A stretch of 34,463 nt of DNA from Collinsella sp. (GTDB lineage: Bacteria > Actinomycetota > Coriobacteriia > Coriobacteriales > Coriobacteriaceae). This document shows positions 5,201-34,219 of the stretch, in pieces. Both the position numbers and the translations under genes were made by a program. The notes under the pieces are model-generated. The model worked only from the letters and a program-made list of their open reading frames with translations. It was not told the origin of the DNA and ran no database searches. The stretch covers positions 1 through 34,463 of the forward strand of contig JAXKFZ010000003.1 in NCBI GenBank assembly GCA_036550635.1. Reading direction: 5' to 3'. The stretch's first letter is position 1, and every line of letters begins with the position of its first letter.

Positions 5201-5318
5201 GACGCGATTGGTGACGCGAGCGTCGACGGCCCGAATCTGCCGTCGGCCCCCACTAACCAAAAACGGCGCCGCTCACGCGACGCCGTCATATTCCCTGGTG
5301 CCCCCGGGCGGATTCGAA
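5201..5318. repeat. 118-bp direct repeat (distal copy) ending in a duplicated 23-bp tRNA-Arg 3' end; att-like
   Basis: Matches 8376-8493 with 9 mismatches. 5296-5318 (TGGTGCCCCCGGGCGGATTCGAA) is identical to the tRNA 3' end. Confidence 0.9.
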
Positions 5319-5337
5319 AACTCCCCCCCCGCGGGGA

Positions 5338-5848: not shown

Positions 5849-7063
5849 CTACTCGTGCTGTCGGGCTTCTACCAGCCTGCAGAAGTCGTTGACGCTCATG
5901 AGCCATTCCCTTTGCGCGGGCGTGTAGGTTTCGAACAGCGATGAGGGCACAACGAGGCTGAGCCTGTCCTTAGCCATAGCTCGTGTGTAATCCTCACTTA
6001 CGGCGGGCTCAAGTGTTACAAGATGCTTGTCCTCGATTCTGTCAGCCTCATCAAGCACCTGACGCCAACGCTCCTTGATGGTTGTCTTGGCACCGAGCAT
6101 CGTCAGTCGAGCGACAGGGAACTTGGGGTCGTGGTAATCGTCAATAGAGGGAAAGATGAAATCCGGCTTCGATTTGCCCTCGGTGTATTTCTGCGCCGAG
6201 TAGCGTATGCCCCTAGCATCGAATAGCATCGAGAGTTGATTCTCGAACGCCGTCCCCGCACGGGACTTGCGGCGCTGGAAGGCCGACATAGTGGTGCGCA
6301 GCACGCCATCAACATCAAGCGCCGAGCCAAGGTATGGCGCGAGGTCGCGCTCCAAGAGATGCCGCTCGAAGACGCGGAACAGCATCTCTTCGCGTTCGTA
6401 ACAAGCGACCAAGCAGCCATCCGGGTCGCCCGTCCAATCGAGCTTTCCAAGGGTGGAAGCTGAGTAGGCTGAGAAGTCTGCCCCTTTGGGGAAGGACTCG
6501 CCGAATTTCTCGATCATACCGTCGAGGAAGTTCTCCGCTGCGATCGGCATGCTAACTTCGATGCCGATGGACTCCAAAATCCTTGCGGCGATCGACGTGA
6601 TGCGCGTATCCTCCCGAGCAGAGGGCGTAAAACCCTTCTCGCCAACCCCGTCGAGCGCGAAGAGCCAGCGAACTTGAGATTCCGCCGTACTCCCCGCTCG
6701 GGCAAATAGGATTACGACCTCCTTGGCTTCGTGTAGGGCCAAAACCATGAGGTCGCCCGGACGGGCCATGCCCATGGCAGCATTATCGTTGTAGTAGAGC
6801 CTATACTCAGTTCTAGTTGGATGCTTCCTGCGGGCGTCGTACCAAGTGGTATAACCATGGTCGAATATAGGGTCTGCACCATCATCGAGATATGCGAAGG
6901 TAGTTCGCATCCCCTTTATGTCATCGTCTCCGAAAAGCGCGCGCAAAGGCCCCACGCCGTTGAATTCGTGCTGGTGGCTTTTATTGGCCCCCATGATGTC
7001 AACGCCCGCGAGGGTTTTCGCGACAGCACCGTCAAAATACGCGCCAAGTACTCCATAGTCCAT
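5849..7063 (-). CDS. Type II restriction endonuclease, EcoRII-like
   Basis: C-terminal RRKSRAG...E, KPDFIFPS, AKTTIKERWRQVLDEADR and HLVTL match the EcoRII catalytic domain. N-terminal SHQ..TWY..TRTEYRL resembles the EcoRII effector domain. 404 aa. Confidence 0.85.
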   Translation of the reverse strand: MDYGVLGAYFDGAVAKTLAGVDIMGANKSHQHEFNGVGPLRALFGDDDIKGMRTTFAYLDDGADPIFDHGYTTWYDARRKHPTRTEYRLYYNDNAAMGMARPGDLMVLALHEAKEVVILFARAGSTAESQVRWLFALDGVGEKGFTPSAREDTRITSIAARILESIGIEVSMPIAAENFLDGMIEKFGESFPKGADFSAYSASTLGKLDWTGDPDGCLVACYEREEMLFRVFERHLLERDLAPYLGSALDVDGVLRTTMSAFQRRKSRAGTAFENQLSMLFDARGIRYSAQKYTEGKSKPDFIFPSIDDYHDPKFPVARLTMLGAKTTIKERWRQVLDEADRIEDKHLVTLEPAVSEDYTRAMAKDRLSLVVPSSLFETYTPAQREWLMSVNDFCRLVEARQHE

Positions 7064-7064
7064 C

Positions 7065-8213
7065 CTAGAACACCTCCATCATCAACTTCGCGACCGAGCG
7101 CACGACCGGCACGGTCACGGAGTTGCCGAACTGCCTGTATGCCTGAGTATCCGACACCGGGATGATGAACTCATCGGGAAATCCTTGCAGGCGCGCGCAT
7201 TCGCGGGGAGTGAGTTTACGAGGGTTTTTTCCTTCCTGCCCGACCAGAATCTCGCTGCCATCCTTGTGGTACCGGGCGGAAAGCGTCCTTGTCGTGTCCT
7301 CTGGGCCGACCATCGAGTATCCAAAGCCGTGGCCCGCCGCCTCATGCTTTTCGCGATAGGCGCGCAGATAGGCCCATAGCTTATCCGAAATGGTGTAGCG
7401 TTCGTTTGGTTGCTCTTCGAGGATTTCCCCTAGCGTATGTCCCGGTCCCGGCACCTCAAGGTCATCCCACGAGAAGGGAACTTCCTCCCTGAACCCCACG
7501 ATGTAGATGCGCTCCCTGTGCTGGCACGTCCAGTTTTTTGAATCAAGCACTTTCCAGAAAATATGGTATCCAAGGTCCTCCTCAAGCGTCTGTCGTATGA
7601 CCTTGAAGGTCTTCCCGCCGTCGTGACTCGTAAGGTTCTTAACGTTCTCAAGCAAGAAGGCCTTCGGGCGCTTGTCGCGTACGATGCGAGCGACCTCGAA
7701 AAAGAGGGTTCCCTGCGTTTTATCCTCAAAGCCGGTGGGTCTCCCCAAAGATTGCTTCTTCGAAACGCCTGCAAGGGAGAATGGCTGACAAGGAAAGCCT
7801 GCGAGCAGGACATCGAAGTCCGGTATATCGTTTGATGCGACCTGACGGATGTCGCCCGCCGGGGTCTCTCCATAGTTCATCCGGTAGGTTTTCTGGGCGA
7901 ACTTATCCCACTCGCAAGAGAAGACGCACCTACCGCCAAGCTCCTGGAACGGCATTCGTATACCGCCGATGCCCGCGAAGAGATCGCAGAAGGTAAAAGG
8001 CGCGTCGCTGCGCTCCCCTTGGTCAAATGGAGCCCCCGCATCGAGCGATGCGATAAAGGCGCATTCAGCCGCCGTTGGACTAGTATCCCCAGACTCCCAG
8101 CGCCGAACGGTGCGTTCGCCAGACGAGCCCATACCAAGGGCGGCGGCGAACTCCTTTTGGGTGAGGCCGAGGTCAATTCTCTTTTGCGCTATATCAGCTG
8201 CATTTAGTTGCAT
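7065..8213 (-). CDS. dcm: C5-cytosine DNA methyltransferase (Dcm/M.EcoRII-like, probably CCWGG) with an N-terminal XRE HTH
   Basis: DLFAGIGG, AGFPCQPFSLAGVSKK, TQGTLFF, ENVKNL, RTLSARYHKDG and QFGNSV motifs. N-terminus LGLTQKEFAAALG...TVRRWESG is an HTH. Confidence 0.9.
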   Translation of the reverse strand: MQLNAADIAQKRIDLGLTQKEFAAALGMGSSGERTVRRWESGDTSPTAAECAFIASLDAGAPFDQGERSDAPFTFCDLFAGIGGIRMPFQELGGRCVFSCEWDKFAQKTYRMNYGETPAGDIRQVASNDIPDFDVLLAGFPCQPFSLAGVSKKQSLGRPTGFEDKTQGTLFFEVARIVRDKRPKAFLLENVKNLTSHDGGKTFKVIRQTLEEDLGYHIFWKVLDSKNWTCQHRERIYIVGFREEVPFSWDDLEVPGPGHTLGEILEEQPNERYTISDKLWAYLRAYREKHEAAGHGFGYSMVGPEDTTRTLSARYHKDGSEILVGQEGKNPRKLTPRECARLQGFPDEFIIPVSDTQAYRQFGNSVTVPVVRSVAKLMMEVF

Positions 8214-8375: not shown

Positions 8376-8493
8376 GACGCAATTGGTGACGCGGGTGTCG
8401 ACGGCCCGAATCCGCCGGCGGCCCCCGCAAACCAGAAACGGCGCCGCTCCCGCGACGCCGTCATATTCCCTGGTGCCCCCGGGCGGATTCGAA
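8376..8493. repeat. 118-bp direct repeat (tRNA-proximal copy) containing an inverted copy of the tRNA 3' half and a terminator-like hairpin
   Basis: Matches 5201-5318. 8391-8416 is an inverted copy of 8482-8507 (24/26). Hairpin ACGGCGCCGC-TCCC-GCGACGCCGT at 8438-8461. Confidence 0.85.
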
Positions 8494-8546
8494 CCGTCGA
8501 CACCCGCTTTAGGAGAGCGGTGCTCTATCCCCTGAGCTACGGAGGC
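8471..8546 (-). tRNA. tRNA-Arg(CCT)
   Basis: GCCTCCGTAGCTCAGGGGATAGAGCACCGCTCTCCTAAAGCGGGTGTCGACGGTTCGAATCCGCCCGGGGGCACCA; cloverleaf, anticodon loop CTCCTAA, encoded CCA. Confidence 0.97.
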
Positions 8547-8649: not shown

Positions 8650-8821
8650 GGAAAATTATAACCCAGAATAACGCAAAATAATGGGATGGGGTTTCCTCTA
8701 ACCACATGTAAGGGAAATTCCATCCCGGTATTCGGCTAAAAAATGGGACAAGCTATCCCAACTGGCGCTCAAAAGGAAAATGCATCCCGGAATGAGAACG
8801 AATTCCGGGATGCATTTTCCG
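8650..8821. repeat. Tandem array of three 48-bp palindromic units (16-16-16) with a 62-bp period (family C)
   Basis: Units at 8650-8697, 8712-8759 and 8774-8821, consensus about CGGAAAnnGCATCCCG-N16-CGGGATGCnnTTTCCG. The last unit forms a perfect 19-bp stem that can also terminate the man operon. Confidence 0.75.
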
Positions 8822-8838
8822 CCATCTATCGCAGACGA

Positions 8839-12354: not shown

Positions 12355-12448
12355 GCAAGTGCGAATGTGCTCGTACTGTCACTATTTTGTTTAAACAGAC
12401 ATGGCTTGACTATTTGCACGACTTATGATCAACAAAACTACTCAAAAA

Positions 12449-12515
12449 AGTTGCGGTGAAATAGTTCTTGTTTAAGAGTCCGAAGGCTGGATTTAGGAAC
12501 TATTTCACCGCAACT
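12449..12515. repeat. 67-bp palindromic element (family A): AGTTGCGGTGAAATAG-N35-CTATTTCACCGCAACT
   Basis: Perfect 16-bp arms; a second copy with identical geometry lies at 21077-21143. Confidence 0.9.
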
Positions 12516-19493: not shown

Positions 19494-20846
19494 TTAGGCA
19501 AGGAGCCACTTCCATGCGGGCACAACGTGGACCACACCGTGCTCGCATGAAATATCGGTCTGTTCATCCATGGTAACGATTGCCGACTCGCCAAGATCGA
19601 ACTGGGCCATCGAGGCATCAAGCGCGGCAATTTCGCGCTCGCGCGTTTTCTCACGTGCCATATCCGCACTCACCTGAATCAGGCTATAAGCCCGCATGAG
19701 AAGCGCGTCCCCAGCCACAAAGTCCACCTCATGGCTTTTGCTCTTCTCTTTGATCAGCAGGCGACAGACCGAGCCGGTCCTCACCGCGGGAGTCTTTCTT
19801 CTTAGCGCATTGAACACTGCGGTCTCGAGCCTCTGGCCCTGGTCCAATGCCGATGCCGGAGAGAATGCTCCAAACATCGCAGGGTCGACAGCGTAGACCT
19901 TAGACGCAGACCGCATGTTATTTGCCAGTGAACGCGTGAACTCCGGCACAGAAAATAACAGGTAGGCGTCCTCATAATACTCAAGTAAATCGCTAAGCGA
20001 ATTACGACTGACGGGTATCTGTCTGCTCTTGAACTCGTTGTACACTTTGTTCACTGACAGCTCTCGTCCCGAAGATGCCATACACCGCGTCAAGAACAGC
20101 GATGCCAGGCGAGGGTTCTTGACGTCGTAACGTTCAACGACGTCCATGGCGACCGTTCGCGAAGCATATTCCTGTAGCAGCTGAATCGCGTCTGCAGGCG
20201 TCTGCTCAAGTGTCGCAATGAATCCCCCTCGTTCAAGATACCCGATCAGATGATGTCGAAGCAGCGCTGCATCGCTCGGGGAAAAGGTCGCATCTGGCTC
20301 GAGAACGCTCCCCGTCTTATATCGAACGTATTCCGAAAAACTCAACGGAAAAAGCTCTCGCACAAGAGAACGACCCCTGAACTCGCTCTTAAGTTCTGAG
20401 GACAGCATCTTAGAAGAAGATCCCGTCACATAGACGGTCGCTTTCTCCGTATCGACTACACGCCGCAGAAACGCACCCCATTCGGGAATTTCCTGGATCT
20501 CGTCAAAGAAAATGTAAGCGCCCTCGGTTCGAGCAACAGGATACAGCGCATAGAACGTGTCGAGCACGTCCGCCAGCAGCGATGGCTCATACGGGCGCAA
20601 GCGCTCATCCTCAAAATTGAAGTAAAGCATCCGGTCAAGCTCGACGCCCCGGCTCTGAAGCCGCCGCATCTCCTGATACAGGCGATACGTCTTTCCACAA
20701 CGGCGGGCCCCCACAATCACATTTACGATGTTGTCGCGCTTTGGCTCCTGTGGGTTTCCTAGATCAAGGTCTCGCTCAAAAACCTGCGGAACCCCCTGCT
20801 GTTCAAAGTCCTTTATTTTCTGGGCGATCAAGTCGTTGAATGCCAT
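19494..20846 (-). CDS. AAA+ ATPase, AAA_14 + DUF4143 type
   Basis: GARRCGKT (Walker A), FFDEIQ (Walker B), VTGSSS, GGF, KVYAVDP and C-terminal EVDFV...IQV (PD-(D/E)XK-like). Confidence 0.85.
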   Translation of the reverse strand: MAFNDLIAQKIKDFEQQGVPQVFERDLDLGNPQEPKRDNIVNVIVGARRCGKTYRLYQEMRRLQSRGVELDRMLYFNFEDERLRPYEPSLLADVLDTFYALYPVARTEGAYIFFDEIQEIPEWGAFLRRVVDTEKATVYVTGSSSKMLSSELKSEFRGRSLVRELFPLSFSEYVRYKTGSVLEPDATFSPSDAALLRHHLIGYLERGGFIATLEQTPADAIQLLQEYASRTVAMDVVERYDVKNPRLASLFLTRCMASSGRELSVNKVYNEFKSRQIPVSRNSLSDLLEYYEDAYLLFSVPEFTRSLANNMRSASKVYAVDPAMFGAFSPASALDQGQRLETAVFNALRRKTPAVRTGSVCRLLIKEKSKSHEVDFVAGDALLMRAYSLIQVSADMAREKTREREIAALDASMAQFDLGESAIVTMDEQTDISCEHGVVHVVPAWKWLLA

Positions 20847-21076: not shown

Positions 21077-21143
21077 AGTTGCGGTGAAATAGGGATTGTT
21101 TTTGCTGGTCAAACCGCAAAACAGTCCCTATTTCACCGCAACT
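21077..21143. repeat. 67-bp palindromic element (family A), second copy
   Basis: Same 16-bp arms and 35-bp interior length as 12449-12515, with a different interior sequence. Confidence 0.9.
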
Positions 21144-21494: not shown

Positions 21495-24122
21495 CTACTC
21501 GGCGTCGGGGACCTCGTAGGTGGCCGCCGGCGTATTGTCGCACACGACGGTAAAGCCGCCGTCCTTGTCGACATCGACCGTCACCTGATCGCCCTCGCGC
21601 ACCGTGCCGTCGATGATAGCGGCGGCGATGGCATCCACGACCTCGCGCTGGACCAGACGCTTGAGCGGACGGGCGCCAAAGACCGGGTCCAGGCCGCCCA
21701 CGGCGAGCATCTGCTTGGCCGCCGGGGTGATGGCAAGCGTCATGCGCTCCTTGGCCAGACGCGCGCGGACGTCGGCGAGCTGGATGTCGACGATCTTCTC
21801 GATCTGCGCCATGCCGAGCGGATGGAACACCACGATATCGTCGATACGGTTGAGGAACTCGGGGCGGAAGGTCTGAGCCATGGCCGCGTTGACCTGATGG
21901 CGCATCTCCTCCTCGTCCTTGCCGGAAAGCTCGGCGATGGCCTTGGAACCCACGTTAGACGTCATGATGATGATCGTGTTCTTGAAGGACACCTGGCGAC
22001 CCTGACCGTCAGTCAGACGGCCGTCGTCAAGCACCTGCAGCAGCACGTTAAAGACATCCGGATGGGCCTTCTCCATCTCGTCGAGCAAGATCACGGAGTA
22101 CGGACGACGGCGCACGGCCTCGGTGAGCTGGCCGCCCTCGTCGTAGCCCACGTATCCCGGAGGCGCACCGATCAGACGCTGGACGCTGAACTTCTCCATA
22201 TACTCGGACATGTCGATACGCACGAGCGCACGCTCGTCATCGAACAGGCACTCGGCCAGCGCCTTGGCGAGCTCGGTCTTGCCCACGCCGGTGGGGCCCA
22301 GGAAGAAGAAGCTGCCGATGGGCTTGTCCGGATCGGAGAGACCCGCACGGCTGCGACGCACGGCCGCGGCGACAGCGGAGACCGCCTCGTCCTGGCCGAT
22401 GACGCGCTTATGCAGCTCGCCCTCCAGGCCCTTCAGCTTGTCGAGCTCGCCCTGCATCATCTTGGAGACGGGCACACCGGTCCAAGCGCTCACGACCTCG
22501 GCGATCTCATCGGAGGTCACCTGCTCGTTCAGGCCCTCGCCGTCCTGCTGCTTTTGCGCCTCGAGCGCGGCCTCGGAATCCTGAATCTGCTGCTGCAAGC
22601 CCGGGATCACGGAGTAGCGCAGCTCGGACGCACGGCCCAGGTCGCCATTGCGCGTCGCGCGCTCCTCTTCGCTCTTGGCCTCATCGAGCTGGCCCTTGAG
22701 CTCCTGCACGTGGTCGATGGCGTTCTTCTGGTTGAGCCAGCCGGCCTTTTGCACGTTGAGCTTTTCCTGAACCTCGGCAATCTCCTGGCGCAAGGCCTCC
22801 AGACGCTCCTTGGAAGCGTCATCGGTCTCCTTCATGAGTGCCTGCTCCTCGATCTGCAGCTGGGTGAGCTGACGCGTGGTGGCATCGATCTCGACCGGCA
22901 TGCTGTCGAGCTCCATGCGCAGGCGGCTTGCCGCCTCATCGACCAGGTCGATGGCCTTGTCGGGCAGGAAACGGTCGGCGATGTAGCGATCGGAGAGGTC
23001 GGCAGCTGCCACGAGCGCGCTATCGGTGATATGCACGCCGTGGAAGATCTCGTACTTCTCCTTCAAGCCACGCAGGATCGAAATGGTGTCCTCGACGGTG
23101 GGCTCGCTGACCATCACGGTCTGGAAACGACGGGCGAGCGCCGCGTCCTTCTCGATGTACTTGCGGTATTCGTCGAGCGTGGTCGCGCCGATCGCATGCA
23201 GGTCGCCACGGGCGAGCGCAGGCTTGAGGATGTTGCCGGCGTCCATGGAGCCCTCGGTGGCACCCGCGCCCACGATGGTGTGGAGCTCATCGATGAACAG
23301 GATGACCTTGCCCTCGGATTTTTGCACTTCTTTGAGCACGGCCTTCAAGCGGTCCTCGAACTCGCCGCGGTACTTGGCGCCGGCGACCAGCGCGCTCATG
23401 TCGAGCTCGATGAGGTCGCGGTCGCGCAGGGTGCTCGGCACGTCGCCGGCCACGATACGCTGGGCGATACCTTCGACGATGGCTGTCTTGCCGACGCCCG
23501 GCTCGCCAATGAGCACGGGGTTGTTCTTGGTGCGGCGGGACAGGACCTGGATGGTACGGCGAATCTCGTCGGTACGACCGATGACAGGGTCGAGCTTGCC
23601 GGCGCGGGCAAGGTCGCAGATGTTGCGTCCGTACTGCTCTAGTGCCTCAAACTGAGTCTTGTCCTCGGCAGACGTCACGCGGTCATCGCCGCGCAGCTCC
23701 TCATAGACCTGCTCGATGCGCTCCTTGGTCACGCTGGCATCGCGCAGCACGCGGCCCGCCTCGCCCTTGTCCTCGGCAAGCGCCATAAGCAGGTGCTCGG
23801 TCACCACAAAGCTGTCACCCATCTTGGTGGCCTTTTTCTCGGCCTTCTCGATGACACGGACGAGCTCGTTGGACAGGCCCATCTGCTGGCCCTCGCCCGA
23901 AACCTTGGGCGCGTGGTCGATGGCATCCTGTGTGGAGCGTGCAAGCTGAGCCGGGTCGGCACCGATGCGCTCAATGATCACGGAGATATTGCGCTCGCCG
24001 GCACCGAGCAGGGCAGACAGCAGGTGAATCGGCTCCACCGCGCCGGCCTGCGCGTCAGCAGCCGTGCTCATGGCGGTCTGCAACGCCTCGCGCGACGTCA
24101 TTGCTAGCTTATCGATTCTCAT
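21495..24122 (-). CDS. clpB: ATP-dependent chaperone ClpB
   Basis: Two AAA modules ([16 protein letters not shown]), coiled-coil middle domain, GAPPGYVGY and GARPLKR motifs; 875 aa. Confidence 0.97.
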
Positions 24123-24211
24123 GGAATCACCTCTCTTGGGGCGGCCGCCCTACGGGGCGGCTTCACGTTGTTCGAGAAGTATTGTTGCCAGCTTTGCGCG
24201 ATCTTATACAC

Positions 24212-24238
24212 AAATCTAAGTCTCTATATATAAGATTT
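24212..24238. promoter_or_regulatory. HAIR-like (probable HspR) operator AAATCTAAGT-N7-TATAAGATTT upstream of clpB
   Basis: Both 10-bp arms and the 7-bp spacing are identical to the site upstream of dnaK (33760-33786). Confidence 0.75.
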
Positions 24239-24300
24239 TCTGAGTGATTGAAAGATAGGAAGCAGGTGCGCTCACCCGCTACGGCCTCGTCCCCTTACTA

Positions 24301-24436
24301 TCTCAATCTGTAACATCTAGTCAGCAAATAGAGCTCTATCTGTTACAAATCGAGACGAACAGAAAACACCCGGATCAAAAATCTAAATCTGTAACACCAG
24401 GCCCACTTTTAGCGGCCAAGATGTTACAGATCGAGA
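24301..24436. repeat. Pair of 55-bp palindromic units (family B): TCTCRATCTGTAACA-N25-TGTTACAGATYGAGA
   Basis: Units at 24301-24355 and 24382-24436. Confidence 0.88.
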
Positions 24437-24446
24437 CAGACCGAAA

Positions 24447-24481
24447 ACCACCACAAAGAGGGCAGGCACCTTTGTGGTGGT
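24447..24481 (+). repeat. 35-bp hairpin repeat R1: ACCACCACAAAG-N11-CTTTGTGGTGGT
   Basis: Loop AGGGCAGGCAC; four copies between 24447 and 26353. Confidence 0.92.
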
Positions 24482-24489
24482 CGCGGTCT

Positions 24490-25161
24490 CTACTCCTTCG
24501 CCGAACCCGTACTTCCCGATTCGACGGTCCAGGGCATCTCATCCTCGAACAGCCATGTACGGGCAGACCCACTATCGCGTGCAGTCTGCGGGTCAGGCAA
24601 GCAGGTCTGTTTATAGGCATCTTGGATACACTGACCCATAAAATCGTTGAGCTCGGTCTGGTCGCCCTCCATGACATAGGCGACATCGCCGTCCATGATG
24701 TAGATGCCCGGACCCTCATTGCCCTCGTAGCCCGGATCGTACGAGACATCACATAACTTTGCGCCGTTTGCAGTGTCCAGCTCGATGGAAGAGTGGCATC
24801 CGCCAACCATGTCGTTCGCTTTTGCCCGATAGGACGCATATCCGTACCAACGCTTAAATGTTTTGCCCTTGAGTAGCTCGGACGCCCTATCGATCAGGCT
24901 TGTATCCGTGGTATAGCGCATGGCCCCAAGCTGAATACGCGGATAATTGCTAATACCCAGCACAGCCGGCTGCTCATCAAAATCAACGGTAATGGTCTCG
25001 GGCTTGTCGTCGCCGGTCAGAAGTTCGACAGATTGAGTCACAGGCTTGACCACCGGCTCCGTCACCGCAGCAGGTAGAAATGCCATACCGACAGCGCCCG
25101 CGCCAACCACAGCGATCGCAAGCGCCAAGACAATCAATCCAATACGGGCAGGACTTCTCAC
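24490..25161 (-). CDS. Hypothetical membrane-anchored or secreted protein (about 223 aa)
   Basis: GTG start after GAGGTG; N-terminal hydrophobic helix; no recognisable domain; stop codon 8 bp from R1. Confidence 0.7.
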   Translation of the reverse strand: MRSPARIGLIVLALAIAVVGAGAVGMAFLPAAVTEPVVKPVTQSVELLTGDDKPETITVDFDEQPAVLGISNYPRIQLGAMRYTTDTSLIDRASELLKGKTFKRWYGYASYRAKANDMVGGCHSSIELDTANGAKLCDVSYDPGYEGNEGPGIYIMDGDVAYVMEGDQTELNDFMGQCIQDAYKQTCLPDPQTARDSGSARTWLFEDEMPWTVESGSTGSAKE

Positions 25162-25250
25162 AGCAAAGCACCTCACAATGCAAGCCTTCACCACCTGCAC
25201 TAATGATATCGCCAGCCAGCACTATTACCTAAAGGAGCCGCGCGCTCCTC

Positions 25251-25285
25251 ACCACCACAAGGGGGACAGGCACCTTTGTGGTGGT
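25251..25285 (+). repeat. 35-bp hairpin repeat R2
   Basis: ACCACCACAAGG-GGGACAGGCAC-CTTTGTGGTGGT followed by TTTCGAC. Confidence 0.92.
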
Positions 25286-25395
25286 TTTCGACGCTAACGG
25301 TCGACCATCTCGCGCCATGAGATTAAACTTGAATTGTTCTCTGAACATATCCATTTCTGCCTATCCTCAACAGATCTTTGTCTCGAGGAGCGCAT

Positions 25396-26064
25396 ATGAA
25401 GCCGTCTCATTCCACCGGTCGCAACGTCATCGCCATTCTCGCCATACCCATCGTGATGCTCTTCCTTATCGTCATCACGCCCTTTTCTTTTGGTATCGCC
25501 TCGCCCTTCGATCTTTGCGGGATGATCGACGCCGGCTCGCGTGCCACCTCGCTCTCCTTTGTCTGCCGTGGCGTGTTCTACGAATATGCAATTCCCACCG
25601 GAAGTTGGCAGTCCAAGTTACCGTTGCTCGGCAAGGTCGACGGATGCTCCCCCTATTTCTGCCTTGAACCTCAGGCGCTAAACTATCTGATCGACGACCA
25701 GCCACTCGACTCCATCACCCTCGCCTACGACTACGCACCAAACACCGATAAGCGTCACATGAACCAAGTCCTCGACAAGATGCTTGGACAGTGCGGGCTC
25801 ACCGAGGAGGCCGGTCGAACCATCTATAGCAACCAGAAATTAAAGCGAACAGAACTCCGCCGTGTCGGAAAAATCAAAGGGCGAAACGGGGCCGCCTACT
25901 GGGATGCTTGGGCAACACGCGACAAGGGCGAATTCGGACACAGCACCTATATGGTCACTGTCTACACCAAAGACGGAATTAAGGACAATGTTGACGATTT
26001 CGCGTCATCCAAACTCGGCATCCCCAAAACAATCAAGCCCGCCAGCCCAGATGAAATCCTGTAG
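25396..26064 (+). CDS. Hypothetical membrane-anchored protein (222 aa)
   Basis: ATG after GAGGAG; N-terminal TM helix VIAILAIPIVMLFLIVITPF; no recognisable domain. Confidence 0.72.
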   Translation: MKPSHSTGRNVIAILAIPIVMLFLIVITPFSFGIASPFDLCGMIDAGSRATSLSFVCRGVFYEYAIPTGSWQSKLPLLGKVDGCSPYFCLEPQALNYLIDDQPLDSITLAYDYAPNTDKRHMNQVLDKMLGQCGLTEEAGRTIYSNQKLKRTELRRVGKIKGRNGAAYWDAWATRDKGEFGHSTYMVTVYTKDGIKDNVDDFASSKLGIPKTIKPASPDEIL

Positions 26065-26118
26065 AGACGCTCATTAGAATGTCGTTCAGCGAGCACGGCA
26101 GCATCGAGCTCGCCCCCC

Positions 26119-26153
26119 ACCACCACGAAAGGGACAGGCCCCTTTGTGGTGGT
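26119..26153 (+). repeat. 35-bp hairpin repeat R3
   Basis: ACCACCACGAAA-GGGACAGGCCC-CTTTGTGGTGGT followed by TTTCGGC. Confidence 0.9.
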
Positions 26154-26175
26154 TTTCGGCTCTGGCACTCGACTG

Positions 26176-26310
26176 TCTCGATCTGTAACATCTAGCGGCC
26201 CTTTTCGATCTTAGATGTTACAGATTGAGATGAAATGATCAGCGGCGATCGTTTGTCTCAATCTGTAACAACCGCTCGTCAAATAGGGGCCCAGATGTTA
26301 CAGGTCGAGA
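26176..26310. repeat. Second pair of 55-bp family-B palindromic units
   Basis: Units at 26176-26230 and 26256-26310. Confidence 0.88.
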
Positions 26311-26318
26311 CAAACGGG

Positions 26319-26353
26319 ACCACCACAAAGGCGCCTGTTCCCTTTGTGGTGGT
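26319..26353 (-). repeat. 35-bp hairpin repeat R4, loop inverted relative to R1-R3
   Basis: Loop GCGCCTGTTCC is the reverse complement of GGAACAGGCGC. Confidence 0.9.
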
Positions 26354-26360
26354 TTTCGAC

Positions 26361-26391
26361 AAAAAGAAGCCGCCCCATTAACAGAGGCGGC
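26361..26391 (-). terminator. Probable terminator downstream of the hydratase gene
   Basis: GCCGCCCC-N7-GAGGCGGC stem followed on the minus strand by TTCTTTTT. Confidence 0.6.
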
Positions 26392-26453
26392 ATCAAGCAA
26401 GTCTATTTATTGGCGTCCCTCAAGACCCAACGAGAACGCAGAAATGTAGCCCA

Positions 26454-26517
26454 GGGCTTACCCTTTCCCGAACGCGACCCTCGCGAAGCGCGTGAGCGGG
26501 CGGGAAAGGGTAAGCCC
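26454..26517. repeat. REP-like stem-loop with perfect 17-bp arms
   Basis: GGGCTTACCCTTTCCCG / CGGGAAAGGGTAAGCCC enclosing a 30-nt loop that contains GCGAAGC. Confidence 0.7.
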
Positions 26518-26537
26518 CGGGCGGACAATTAAGTGCG

Positions 26538-28838
26538 TTACTCGGCAGCGGCCTTGAACTTGTTGTAGTTGATCAGGCAGCCGGCCTTGACGATGGCACG
26601 CTCCTCTGCCGTCATATCGGCAATGTAGAGCTCAATCTGCTCAACCGCACCGTCGGCACGCACCACGTAGGCAGCGATGTTCTTCAGGTCGCCATCGAGC
26701 GCGGCACGGATACCCGGCACAAAGACGTAGTCGCCCACCTCAAAGTTGGGCTCCGCCTCCATCTGGAAGGGCACCATGCCCCAGTTCATCACGTTGGAGC
26801 GATAGCGCTTGGTGGCGTACTCGTGGACGATGTTGGCCAGGCCGCCAATCACGCGCTGGCAGCTCGCGGCCTGCTCGCGGGCGGAACCGTCGCCGGGCTT
26901 CTTGGCATAGAGCATAGAGCCGTACTCGGTCGCCTTGGCATCGGCCGTGACACCCGCGCCGGCCAGTGCCTCAAACACGCTGGCAAGCTCAGCATCGAGT
27001 GCCGTCAGGTCGCCCGCGGCCTCGCCGGCAACGCGGCGCTTCTCCACGGCGTCGACCTCCTTGGAGCGGCCCACGTAGGCCGGGTCGCGGCGGCTGAGCG
27101 TAAACTCGGCCAGGCCCAGCGGGTTGGAGCGGAAGGAGCTCGTCTCGCCCGAGGGAATGAGCTCGTCGGTCGTGGTGACCGGGTCCATGATCTTGGAGCA
27201 CACCTTGAGCAGGATGTCGTCGCCGAGAGGCTCCATCGCGGGCCACGGCTTGATGTTGGGGCCCTCGACCAGCTCGTCGGCAGGCTCCGCCTTGCCAAAG
27301 CCCCAGTACACGCGCTTTTTGTACGGCGCGTCGTCAAAGGTGTACTCGCAGGCCTCGTCCCAAGTCTCCTCGGGCAGGTCGGTCGCCGGCGTCAGGACGC
27401 CGCCGTTGGCAGCCGTCGCCGCAATGGAACGGGCGTCCATCAGGGCCACGGCGCTCAGCTGGCCATTACCCGGCTTGGAACCCTCGCGGTTGGGGAAGTT
27501 GCGCGTGGTGTGGCGGATCGAAAGGCCATTGTTGGCGGGCGTGTCGCCGGCGCCGAAGCACGGGCCGCAGAACGCCGTGCGCACAATCGCGCCGGCCTCC
27601 ATAAGGTCGTAGATGTAGCCGCGGCGTGTAAGCTCGAGTGCCACGGGCTGGCTCGTGGGATAGACCGACAGCGAGAACTCGCCGCAGCCGGTGTTGGCGC
27701 CCTTGAGCACGCGGGCAGCCTGGACCACGGAGTCGTAGTTGCCGCCCGAACAGCCGGCGATAACGCCCTGCTGCACGTGCAGCTTGCCGTCGACGATCTT
27801 GTCGAGCAGGCTAAAGTGCGTCTTGCCCTCGCCGATCTTGGCGGCCTCGAGCTCCACCTCGTGCAGGATGTCCTCGAGGTTCTCGTTGAGCTCGTCGATC
27901 TCAAAGCCGTTGGAAGGATGGAACGGCAGCGCGATCATGGGCTTGATGCTCGACAGGTCGACCTCGACACAGCCGTCGTAGTAGGCAACATCGGCGGGCT
28001 TGAGCTCGCGGTAGTCGTCGCCGCGGCCGTGCATGGTCAAAAACGCGTGCGTGTCCTCGTCGGTGGCCCAGATGCTCGACAGGCAGGTGGTCTCGGTGGT
28101 CATGACATCGACGCCATTGCGGTAGTCGGTCGTCATGCTCGCGATGCCGGGGCCCACAAACTCCATGACCTTGTTCTTAACGTAGCCCTTGGCAAAGACG
28201 GCGCGGATGATGGCGAGCGCCACGTCGTGCGGGCCAACGCCGGGGCGCGGGGCGCCCGTGAGGTAGATGGCAACGACGCCGGGATAGGCGACATCGTAGG
28301 TGTCGCGCAGCAGCTGCTTTGCCAGCTCGCCACCGCCCTCGCCCACGGCCATGGTGCCCAGAGCGCCGTAGCGGGTGTGCGAGTCGGAGCCCAGGATCAT
28401 CTTGCCACAGCCGGCGAAATTCTCACGCATAAAGGAGTGGATGACGGCGATGTGCGGCGGGACGAAGATGCCGCCGTACTTCTTGGCAGCCGAGAGACCA
28501 AAGACGTGGTCGTCCTCGTTGATGGTGCCGCCCACGGCGCACAGCGAGTTGTGGCAGTTGGTGAGCACGTAGGGCAGCGGGAACTGCTCCATGCCCGAGG
28601 CGCGCGCCGTCTGGATGATGCCGACAAAGGTGATGTCGTGGCTCGCCATGGCGTCGAAGCGAATCTTGAGCGCCTCGGGATCTCCGGACGTATTGTGTGC
28701 CTGGAGGATCGAATACGCGATGGTGCCGCGCTTGGCATCCTCGGGCGTCTGCGTAATACCGCGCTCGGCAGCCTCGGCCTCAGGCACAACCTCGCTGCCA
28801 CCGCGCAGGTAGATGCCGTCCTCGTACAGCTTAACCAT
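26538..28838 (-). CDS. ybhJ: Aconitase-family hydratase, YbhJ-like
   Basis: [63 protein letters not shown] and swivel-domain TTTDELIP motifs; probable start MVKLYEDG. Confidence 0.85.
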
Positions 28839-29010
28839 ACTGTCTCCCACTCTGCCCGAAAGGCTCGGGCGCATAGCATACATTCGTTCAATATCGTGCC
28901 ATAGAACGGTTGCGAGTGGGTTGCGAATCTACACGTTCACTTTATCTCGGTAAAGTAAAGGATGAACCCGGCGAGGGCCGGCAGATTTAGTGCAAGAGTG
29001 TCCCTTTCGA

Positions 29011-29090
29011 CTAGTCATTTAAGAACGTCCCCAATGACTAGACGAGGGATGTCCCACAGTGCCGGCACAAAAGGAACGTCCCCAAGTGCC
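29011..29090 (-). repeat. Two short hairpins with a GGGGACGTTC loop (REP-like)
   Basis: CTAGTCATT-taagaacgtcccc-AATGACTAG (29011-29041) and GGCAC-aaaaggaacgtccccaa-GTGCC (29064-29090). Confidence 0.6.
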
Positions 29091-29157
29091 AACCAAAGCA
29101 ACGCCGCAGGTTGAGGACGGACAGCGAGCGGACCGCATTTGAGGCAAGGTGACGTGA

Positions 29158-29191
29158 AACGAAAGGGCGCTGACCTTCTGGTCGCGCCCTT
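29158..29191 (-). terminator. Probable terminator of the dnaK-hspR operon
   Basis: AAGGGCGC(T)GACC-TTCT-GGTCGCGCCCTT stem ending in TTTCGTTT on the minus strand. Confidence 0.6.
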
Positions 29192-29267
29192 GAAGTTGAA
29201 CGTCAGATTGTCCAAATGCGGCCCGCGCAGCGTCGAGCCGTTACGCCGTTCGGCAGAACGGCGGAAC

Positions 29268-29684
29268 CTACAGATCTCCTCCGGCACCCAGCAGCTTGCG
29301 CATGACCTGCTCGGGGTTGACTGAGCCGTCGCGCGGGGCCAGGGCGGTGATCTTCTTCTGCATCTTGTACTCGTGGAGCTCTTCCTCGAGCTGGCGCACA
29401 CGGGCACGGAGTTTCTCGTTCTCGCGCTCGCGCTCCTCGGCACGCTCCTTCATATCGAGGATACGCACCACGCCGGCAAGGTTGATGCCCTCGTCAGTGA
29501 GCTGGTTGATGAGCTCCAGGCGCTCGATATCGGCACGCGAGTAAAGACGCGTGTTGCCGCCCGAACGCTGGGGGTTCACCAGGCCCTTGGACTCGTAGAC
29601 GCGCAGAGTCTGCGGGTGCATGCCGGTCAGCTCAGCCGCCACGCTGATCATGTACAGCGGTTTGTTCCTATTGTCCTCGGCCAT
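29268..29684 (-). CDS. hspR: Heat-shock repressor HspR (MerR family)
   Basis: YMISVAAELTGMHPQTLRVYE...GINLAGV; last gene of the dnaK operon. Confidence 0.93.
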   Translation of the reverse strand: MAEDNRNKPLYMISVAAELTGMHPQTLRVYESKGLVNPQRSGGNTRLYSRADIERLELINQLTDEGINLAGVVRILDMKERAEERERENEKLRARVRQLEEELHEYKMQKKITALAPRDGSVNPEQVMRKLLGAGGDL

Positions 29685-33913: not shown

Positions 33914-34085
33914 CGGAAAGCTCATCCCGGTTTGAGCGTGGATTCCGGGTCGCAGTTTCCGTCTGAAGGCTCAACCGGAAACCGTATCCCGTTTTGAGAG
34001 CTGATACCGGCTCGCATTTTCCGCTAGCGGGCCTAACCGGAAACTGCAACCCGTTTTTCGACAAAATAATGGGATGCGGTTTCCG
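33914..34085. repeat. Second family-C array: three 48-bp palindromic units with a 62-bp period
   Basis: Units at 33914-33961, 33976-34023 and 34038-34085, each CGGAAA...CCCG-N16-...TTTCCG. Confidence 0.8.
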
Positions 34086-34219
34086 CAAGCACGCTCAATC
34101 GCCCTATATTTCAAGTCACCTTTAGCTAACATTTACGCAGCTCAACGGCCCCACCTGCGCGTTTTTTAGTAAACCTTGGCATACTCGGCGAACGGTATGA
34201 AGATGCCGGCCAGAGGGTA

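Follow-up and report, generated by a model that had tools for sequence, protein, structure and literature searches.

Repetitive extragenic palindromic (REP) sequences and bacterial interspersed mosaic elements (BIMEs) are known from enterobacteria and pseudomonads, and in the systems that couple REPINs (REP doublets forming hairpins) to REP-associated tyrosine transposases (RAYTs), a conserved 5' tetranucleotide, GTAG-like, is used by the RAYT. In Neisseria, dRS3 repeats flank RS units, and pairs of uptake sequences act as terminators. Integron attC sites measure 57-141 bp, end in RYYYAAC...GTTRRRY and carry extrahelical bases; their cassettes are promoterless and co-oriented, and the system includes intI, attI and Pc. 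In this work, we analyzed a Collinsella-type chromosome segment of 34.5 kb (34,463 nucleotides of Collinsella sp., assembly GCA_036550635.1, contig JAXKFZ010000003.1, positions 1 to 34,463), hereafter called the window; the genus Collinsella is abundant in the human gut and highly diverse. The window holds, between clpB and an aconitase-family gene, a block made of two genes (geneA and geneB), four 35-bp hairpins (R1 to R4) and four longer palindromes (B1 to B4), which a preliminary description had regarded as a possible gene-capture array with R as the boundary of each cassette. Our analysis favors, with reasonable confidence, a different explanation: R is a REP-like dispersed hairpin and a probable two-way terminator or 3'-end stabilizer, R and B together form BIME-like modules, and the differences between strains result from recombination or slippage between repeats. 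The block is thus best described as a repeat-rich, strain-variable islet of Collinsella-specific genes for probably membrane-anchored proteins and not as a dedicated gene-capture array.

Special attention was given to the distribution of R outside the window. A scan of species-representative genomes, in which the R arms had to be exact and the middle (13-17 nt) was left free, identified at least 133 R-bearing stretches, nearly all of them titled Collinsella, and for 80 of these loci 2-kb flanks were present. The only sequence common to the window and to most of these loci is R itself, about 38 bp long. When the R sites were grouped by their 250-nt flanks, 143 sites resolved into 27 orthologous groups and 27 singletons, that is, at least 54 distinct sites. 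Genes at these loci were called with a simple third-position-GC gene caller written for this analysis. Where both neighbours could be called (37 independent sites), the context is convergent in 16, tandem in 18 and divergent in 3 (28, 47 and 5, respectively, when every site is counted, replicates included). A gene 3' end adjoins R at 34 independent sites, and in 27 of them R starts no more than 20 bp past the stop codon. It falls inside a called open reading frame (ORF) at 5 of 95 sites, and these ORF calls looked spurious. The genes beside R include those for shikimate kinase and dehydrogenase, prephenate dehydratase, HisA, HisB and HisF, Lgt, GlmS, TyrRS, the ribosomal proteins L1 and L11, FtsH and BipA. 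No transposase, integrase or Y1 domain was found in the 138 protein clusters located within 2 kb of R among the loci listed, so that the recombinase or Y1 transposase whose presence beside R had been anticipated did not appear there. Because R follows stop codons at 54 sites or more, one gene per R interval is what would be expected without capture, and the 8-bp distance between geneA and R1 is the norm of the family and nothing special. The fact that those stop codons belong to housekeeping genes speaks against R as a cassette boundary and against the block as a gene-capture array.

Within the window, the order between clpB (ClpB, 21495-24122, minus strand) and the aconitase-family gene (26538-28883, minus strand), both assigned in a Pfam scan of the window ORFs, is B1, B2, R1, geneA on the minus strand, R2, geneB on the plus strand, R3, B3, B4 and R4. 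The R pattern matches exactly four times, at 24448-24480, 25252-25284, 26120-26152 and 26320-26352, with 0-2 mismatches; there are no matches in the rest of the 34.5-kb window and none in 100 shuffles. Each R is 35 bp long, with perfect arms of 12-13 bp (ACCACCACAAAG/CTTTGTGGTGGT) and an 11-nt loop, and the start-to-start spacings are 804, 868 and 200 bp. The four copies have folding energies of -24 to -30 kcal/mol and z values of -3.6 to -5.0 (R1, -30.2 kcal/mol and z -5.0), and the terminator rule of the tool selects R1 alone among them. R1 (24447-24481, minus strand) lies 8 bp past the geneA stop, with the T-tract TTTTCGG on the minus strand, and thus occupies the place where a geneA terminator would be, before the clpB promoter region. 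R2 (25251-25285, plus strand) sits between the divergent starts of geneA (24490-25161, minus strand, 223 aa), 89 nt away, and geneB (25396-26064, plus strand, 222 aa), 110 nt away, a position that is atypical for the family; each of the two genes has its own upstream region. R3 (26119-26153, plus strand) is found 54 bp past the geneB stop and is followed by TTTTCGG, and R4 (26319-26353), whose loop is inverted with respect to R3, closes an R-B-B-R mosaic module.

This anatomy, obtained by pattern scan and repeat search, agrees with most of what the preliminary description had listed: four hairpins, four palindromes and two genes, one ORF in each of the intervals of 804 and 868 bp, the 8-bp gap between the geneA stop and R1, an R4 inverted in its loop sequence, and a position between clpB and the aconitase-family gene (named ybhJ there) where domain scans of 13 and 15 window ORFs gave neither an integrase nor a transposase. 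Two of its statements hold in part. R1 to R3 do point the same way by their loops (plus for R1 to R3, minus for R4), but by the A/T flanks R1 faces the other way, with CGAAAA upstream and no T-tract after it, whereas R2 to R4 are followed by TTTTCG. Likewise, the units of the proposed B-B-R4 module are present, but the right-hand module is really R3-B-B-R4; the left one is a half module, B, B and R1, between geneA and the clpB promoter region.

In a sequence logo built from 46 independent sites, R is near-invariant over its 35 nt. The three positions upstream carry an A in 27, 33 and 36 of these sites, and positions +1, +2 and +3 downstream carry a T in 39, 37 and 29 of them, so that R with its AAA/TTT flanks extends over about 45 bp; these A/T tracts are all that adjoins R in the logo, which contains no GTAG-like 5' tetranucleotide. 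The 11-nt loop, which the scan pattern had left free, is GGGACAGGCAC in 105 of the 166 copies listed; the loops of REP sequences are not known to be nearly so conserved. A higher conservation of R than of its flanks within orthologous groups (0.94 vs 0.86-0.91) was discarded because the scan pattern itself fixed 20 of the 35 positions. In 6 of the 27 groups, orthologous sites carry the loop in opposite orientations (for example, L017:2345-2379 vs L056:2371-2405), a count to be read with the caveat that the grouping may mix neighbouring R copies; it suggests that the asymmetric loop may flip in place between its perfect arms, and loop direction would therefore mean little. An empty-site comparison for R insertion, L035 against L017 and L056, was void, as the right-hand neighbour differs in L035. 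One further locus, L038 (contig CAVCBD010000014.1, record title Acutalibacteraceae), contains two B-B-R modules; it is either a mis-binned Collinsella contig or a case of R and B repeats outside the genus.

The second repeat family, B, is composed of units of 55-60 nt whose two 15-bp arms (TCTCRATCTGTAACA and the complementary sequence) are invariant and whose 25-nt interior differs between loci. The four copies in the window are 57-60 nt long: B1 (24300-24356; inverted arms TCTCRATCTGTAACA and TGTTACAGATYGAGA around a variable 25-nt center), B2 (24382-24441, 81 bp past B1), B3 (26175-26231; fold of -30.2 kcal/mol, z -6.7) and B4 (26251-26310, 80 bp past B3). Successive units follow one another every 80-81 bp in 27 of 29 intervals. 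In a consensus fold of 48 units, only the invariant arms pair, the covariation term is 0.04 and the interiors have no common structure; the sole variable arm position shows A-C mismatches in 11 of the 48, about as many as independent variation predicts. Since there is neither covariation nor a common interior structure, B is unsupported as a structured RNA, and recognition of each arm by its sequence is as likely as the formation of a hairpin. Arrays of two to four B units, ending in R on one side or on both, occur in 16 further loci among those listed. In L017 and L056, a pseudouridine-synthase gene is followed by R, three B units, R and a converging DeoR-type gene; in L053, a kinase-like gene is followed by the same R-BBB-R array and a converging oxidoreductase gene. 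The right module of the window, in which geneB is followed by R3, B, B, R4 and the converging aconitase-family gene, presents the same arrangement as these three loci. Full-text searches of the literature gave no description of the R and B repeats. The passages of PMC8040213 and PMC7771070 that concern Collinsella and REPs mention them in passing, and R and B are not described in those passages.

The interval between clpB and the aconitase-family gene was compared in four versions (the window, L009/L010, L037 and L083), and its gene content differs among them. L009 and L010 are 96% identical to the window at the locus. Past R3, L009 has a B array of three units and then a degenerate R whose loop is shortened. 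These are followed by geneA2, which encodes, on the minus strand, a paralogue 50% identical to the geneA protein, and the sequence of L009 rejoins that of the window near 26370-26413; in the window, L037 and L083, R4 stands at the place that geneA2 has in L009. L037, about 92-93% identical, has no geneB. Its single R has an R2-type left flank, an R3-type sequence and an R3-type right flank, which places the junction at the left edge of R; on its clpB side, it carries three B units where the window has two. L083 matches the window from the 3' end of geneB to the aconitase-family gene. The two genes are thus not fixed in relatives, and the junctions of geneB and geneA2 coincide with R, as had been proposed, so that this comparison does not refute the gene-capture idea. 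In the window, geneB is bounded by a 73-nt direct repeat (25240-25312, plus strand, R2 with its flanks; right copy at 26108-26180, 79% identical) that reaches past R into about 38 nt of flanking sequence and the first part of a B arm, and it therefore fits what homologous exchange of one R-B junction with another would leave. Because geneB is widely spread, it may be an old resident that was lost in L037. In a separate observation, the last ~70 codons of geneA2 and the R-B-B module (L009:145-1040 vs window 24299-24708) match those of geneA at ~81% of DNA positions; either gene conversion with the repeat module or a strong constraint on the C-terminal motif TCLPDPQTARDSGSARTWLFEDE may account for this likeness.

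The two genes themselves are unrelated to each other (BLASTP E=19), and no Pfam family was found for either of them (geneA, E<=0.01). Both encoded proteins start with a hydrophobic helix, at residues 7-20 (geneA) and 8-31 (geneB) in AlphaFold models, and are probably anchored in the membrane with the remainder outside the cytoplasm. They had been called orphans, a term that does not fit genes with 136 (geneA) and 188 (geneB) homologue clusters at E<=0.001. All these clusters are unnamed or "hypothetical", and their taxon, where known, is Actinomycetota/Collinsella. The geneA family is almost confined to Collinsella-type Actinomycetota, and an exhaustive profile search with it yielded only 50 representative clusters. 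Its model shows an alpha/beta core (predicted local distance difference test score, pLDDT, ~90 for residues 51-210) after the N-terminal helix and a disordered linker, and a fold search with it gave no match in the PDB at E<=0.001. The weakest matches of the geneA family profile (E 1e-11 to 4.5e-5) fall in Flg_new-rich regions of large leucine-rich repeat surface proteins; Flg_new, the Listeria-Bacteroides repeat or InlB B-repeat surface domain, is a lead toward a surface domain and not a membership. The product of geneB, a conserved hypothetical protein, is poorly modelled (mean pLDDT 52). With 82-93% identity in the best 120 of its 188 clusters, it does not qualify as a variable surface protein, so that, of the earlier idea of variable surface proteins, the probable location outside the cytoplasm stands and the variability of geneB does not; an alignment of 18 geneB sequences has a mean column identity of 92%. 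Third-position GC is 0.62 in geneA and 0.67 in geneB, compared with 0.82-0.87 in the neighbouring genes. A weak Atlas lead to DUF5301 (0.84) was not trusted as an identity for either gene, the other Atlas matches being unnamed Actinomycetota clusters, and apparent fusions of geneA to adenylate kinase or FeoB (P0067 and P0073, covering 75-78% of geneA) are probably chimeras of metagenome assembly and not alternative contexts. Homologues of geneA and geneB had also been expected at other R loci; none was found among the loci listed, at least 133, and they occur only at the clpB locus (L009/L010 and L037).

Based on these results, R would most likely serve, as a genus-wide GC-rich hairpin just past stop codons, as a putative two-way terminator or mRNA 3'-end hairpin, and B would combine with it into R-(B)n-R mosaics between transcription units. 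In the block, R1 would end geneA before the clpB promoter region, R3-B-B-R4 would separate geneB from the converging aconitase-family gene, and the loss of geneB, the extra geneA paralogue and the presence of two or three B units would result from homologous recombination or replication slippage, with the repeats as passive substrates. It is important to consider the points that weigh against this explanation. The T-tract of R has only 3-4 T and is barely commoner on the side of a gene end (50 of 84 R sides with a gene end vs 54 of 106 sides without one); because it is short and so little tied to gene ends, the terminator role stays putative. R2, the only misplaced copy, sits between divergent starts, where a terminator is not needed. 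With four versions of the locus, gain is not polarised against loss, and the census, with its stretches numbering 133 or more, covers copies with exact arms. Moreover, a terminator needs no conserved asymmetric loop, and passive repeats leave a near-invariant one unexplained; such a loop points either to a spread in recent times or to a protein that recognizes it.

Recognition by a protein is the basis of two other explanations. R and B could be the binding sites, putative in themselves, of a chromosome-organizing or regulatory DNA-binding protein, with the position at gene ends being secondary; we consider this doubtful. The conserved R loop, the invariant B arms with a single variable position that does not co-vary (A-C in 11 of 48) and the spacing fixed at 80-81 bp while the interior varies would all suit such sites, but no candidate protein was identified, and a perfect hairpin with a 12-13-bp stem past stop codons fits a role in RNA or single-stranded DNA. 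It is somewhat less probable that a HUH (RAYT-like) or other recombinase acts in trans with R as its recognition hairpin and captures, excises or swaps R-bounded units. The junction for the presence or absence of geneB lies in R, between two copies in direct loop orientation, the geneA2 indel takes the place of R4, the near-invariance of the asymmetric loop (in 105 of 166 copies listed and across 46 independent sites) suits recognition by a protein, and the low third-position GC of geneA and geneB is common in acquired genes. Nevertheless, this explanation has to face the position of R past housekeeping genes at 54 sites or more, the absence of the GTAG-like 5' tetranucleotide of REPs, the lack of recombinases in the 138 flanking clusters and the scanned window ORFs, and the restriction of geneA and geneB homologues to this one locus among the R loci listed; in addition, ~38 nt of the repeat that bounds geneB are flank, and geneB is highly conserved in its best 120 clusters. 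The narrower proposal that a recombinase acting in trans on R, such as a domesticated HUH or RAYT-like enzyme, has moved the geneB and geneA2 units at R sites is less probable again. If true, it would represent a REP-based gene-cassette system in gut Actinomycetota and would account for the near-invariant loop. Finally, the whole block could be a composite mobile element with geneA and geneB as cargo, whose inverted B-B-R modules (24300-24481 and 26119-26310) are long terminal inverted repeats. These modules are indeed inverted copies (I1 75%, I2 70% and I4 89% complementary), but the same modules occur alone between unrelated housekeeping genes, relatives differ inside the block and not by its presence or absence as a whole, no transposase was found in the window ORFs scanned or the 138 clusters beside R, and there is no target-site duplication at 24299/24300 or after 26310/26353, all of which makes this explanation very improbable.

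The window also contains features unrelated to R and B. Between R4 and the aconitase-family gene, there is an ordinary terminator-like hairpin (26359-26391, T-run on the minus strand) downstream of that gene, and directly past the gene, a palindrome with 27-bp arms (26449-26522). R and B match no Rfam family, because the scans returned only tRNA-Arg (whole window, gathering threshold, sole match) and a chance match of this last palindrome to mir-2041 (29 bits, the gathering score being 70; sole match at E<=1 in 24100-26560). The heat-shock neighbourhood comprises dnaK, grpE, dnaJ, a MerR/HspR-like gene, the aconitase-family gene and clpB. Upstream of dnaK, three tandem 62-nt palindromic units (33914-34099; a related single copy at 8774-8835) could hold putative heat-shock operator sites, and the intergenic stretch of ~270 nt that separates the MerR/HspR-like gene from the aconitase-family gene (29008-29279) is, judged from its ~80% identity to L042:3021-3269 and L064:2798-3055, apparently another dispersed repeat. 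A third family of palindromic intergenic repeats (26-bp arms, 96% complementary) was identified at 21077-21143 and 12434-12473 and in an unrelated Collinsella locus (L001:573-658). Beside clpB, a gene for an AAA_14/DUF4143 ATPase (19494-20846) fails the third-position-GC filter (GC3 >0.62 and higher than positions 1 and 2) that its neighbours pass, and it may have been acquired. In another part of the window, a 132-nt direct repeat (5201-5332 and 8376-8507, 89% identical) that overlaps the 3' part of tRNA-Arg(CCT) (8471-8546) encloses the genes for an EcoRII-type endonuclease and a C5 DNA methylase (5849-8213), with no integrase seen among the scanned ORFs; the arrangement resembles that of a small restriction-modification island with the tRNA-Arg gene as its insertion site.

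The main value of these results is negative, since the cassette-like look of the block comes from a general repeat and not from a dedicated capture system. The positive result is a near-invariant, genus-wide hairpin at gene ends together with a second, strictly phased palindrome family, for which full-text searches found no description. Repeats of this kind break metagenome assemblies, seed gene gain and loss at the strain level, as for geneB and geneA2, probably define transcript ends, and could serve as markers of the genus Collinsella. The conservation of the R loop, in turn, poses a tractable question, namely which protein or process reads it.

Compared with the described systems, the block shares with integrons the presence of imperfect palindromes between single genes and strain differences in gene content that fall at the repeats. 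Nevertheless, its membership fails on every feature tested: neither intI nor attI nor Pc turned up in the window, no recombinase is among the 138 clusters flanking R at the loci listed, R has 35 bp and perfect arms without RYYYAAC/GTTRRRY ends, geneA and geneB are divergent with their own upstream regions, and R is mostly located at housekeeping genes. The inverted modules of the block recall composite transposons and miniature inverted-repeat transposable elements, but neither a target-site duplication nor a transposase was found. As in Rho-independent terminators, a stable GC-rich stem-loop stands 0-20 bp past stop codons with an A-tract and a T-tract at its sides, and it could act both ways; ordinary terminators differ in sequence from one another, whereas R is one near-identical 35-mer at 54 sites or more, with a T-tract of 3-4 nt that is not clearly tied to gene direction. 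The mosaics of Neisseria are similar in that a short, conserved inverted repeat brackets longer units in intergenic arrays beside variable genes, and its uptake sequences in their inverted, terminator-like pairs at gene ends, but the Neisseria mosaics have no sequence relation to R or B, and signs of natural competence, or of phage or IS110-type integration at R, did not appear here, although no search was aimed at them. The earlier judgement that R is unlike attC and closer to a dispersed hairpin of the single-stranded DNA type is consistent with its REP-type features and the absence of attC ends. R differs from REP and BIME elements in that it lacks a GTAG-type 5' motif and any RAYT among the 138 clusters within 2 kb, in its host, Coriobacteriia and not Proteobacteria, and in its partner B, palindromes of 55-60 nt at a strict 80-81-bp period. 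It nonetheless resembles them in being a short (35-nt), GC-rich extragenic palindrome, present at many sites in either orientation and usually past genes, whose R-(B)n-R mosaics are similar to BIMEs and coincide with strain-to-strain rearrangements.

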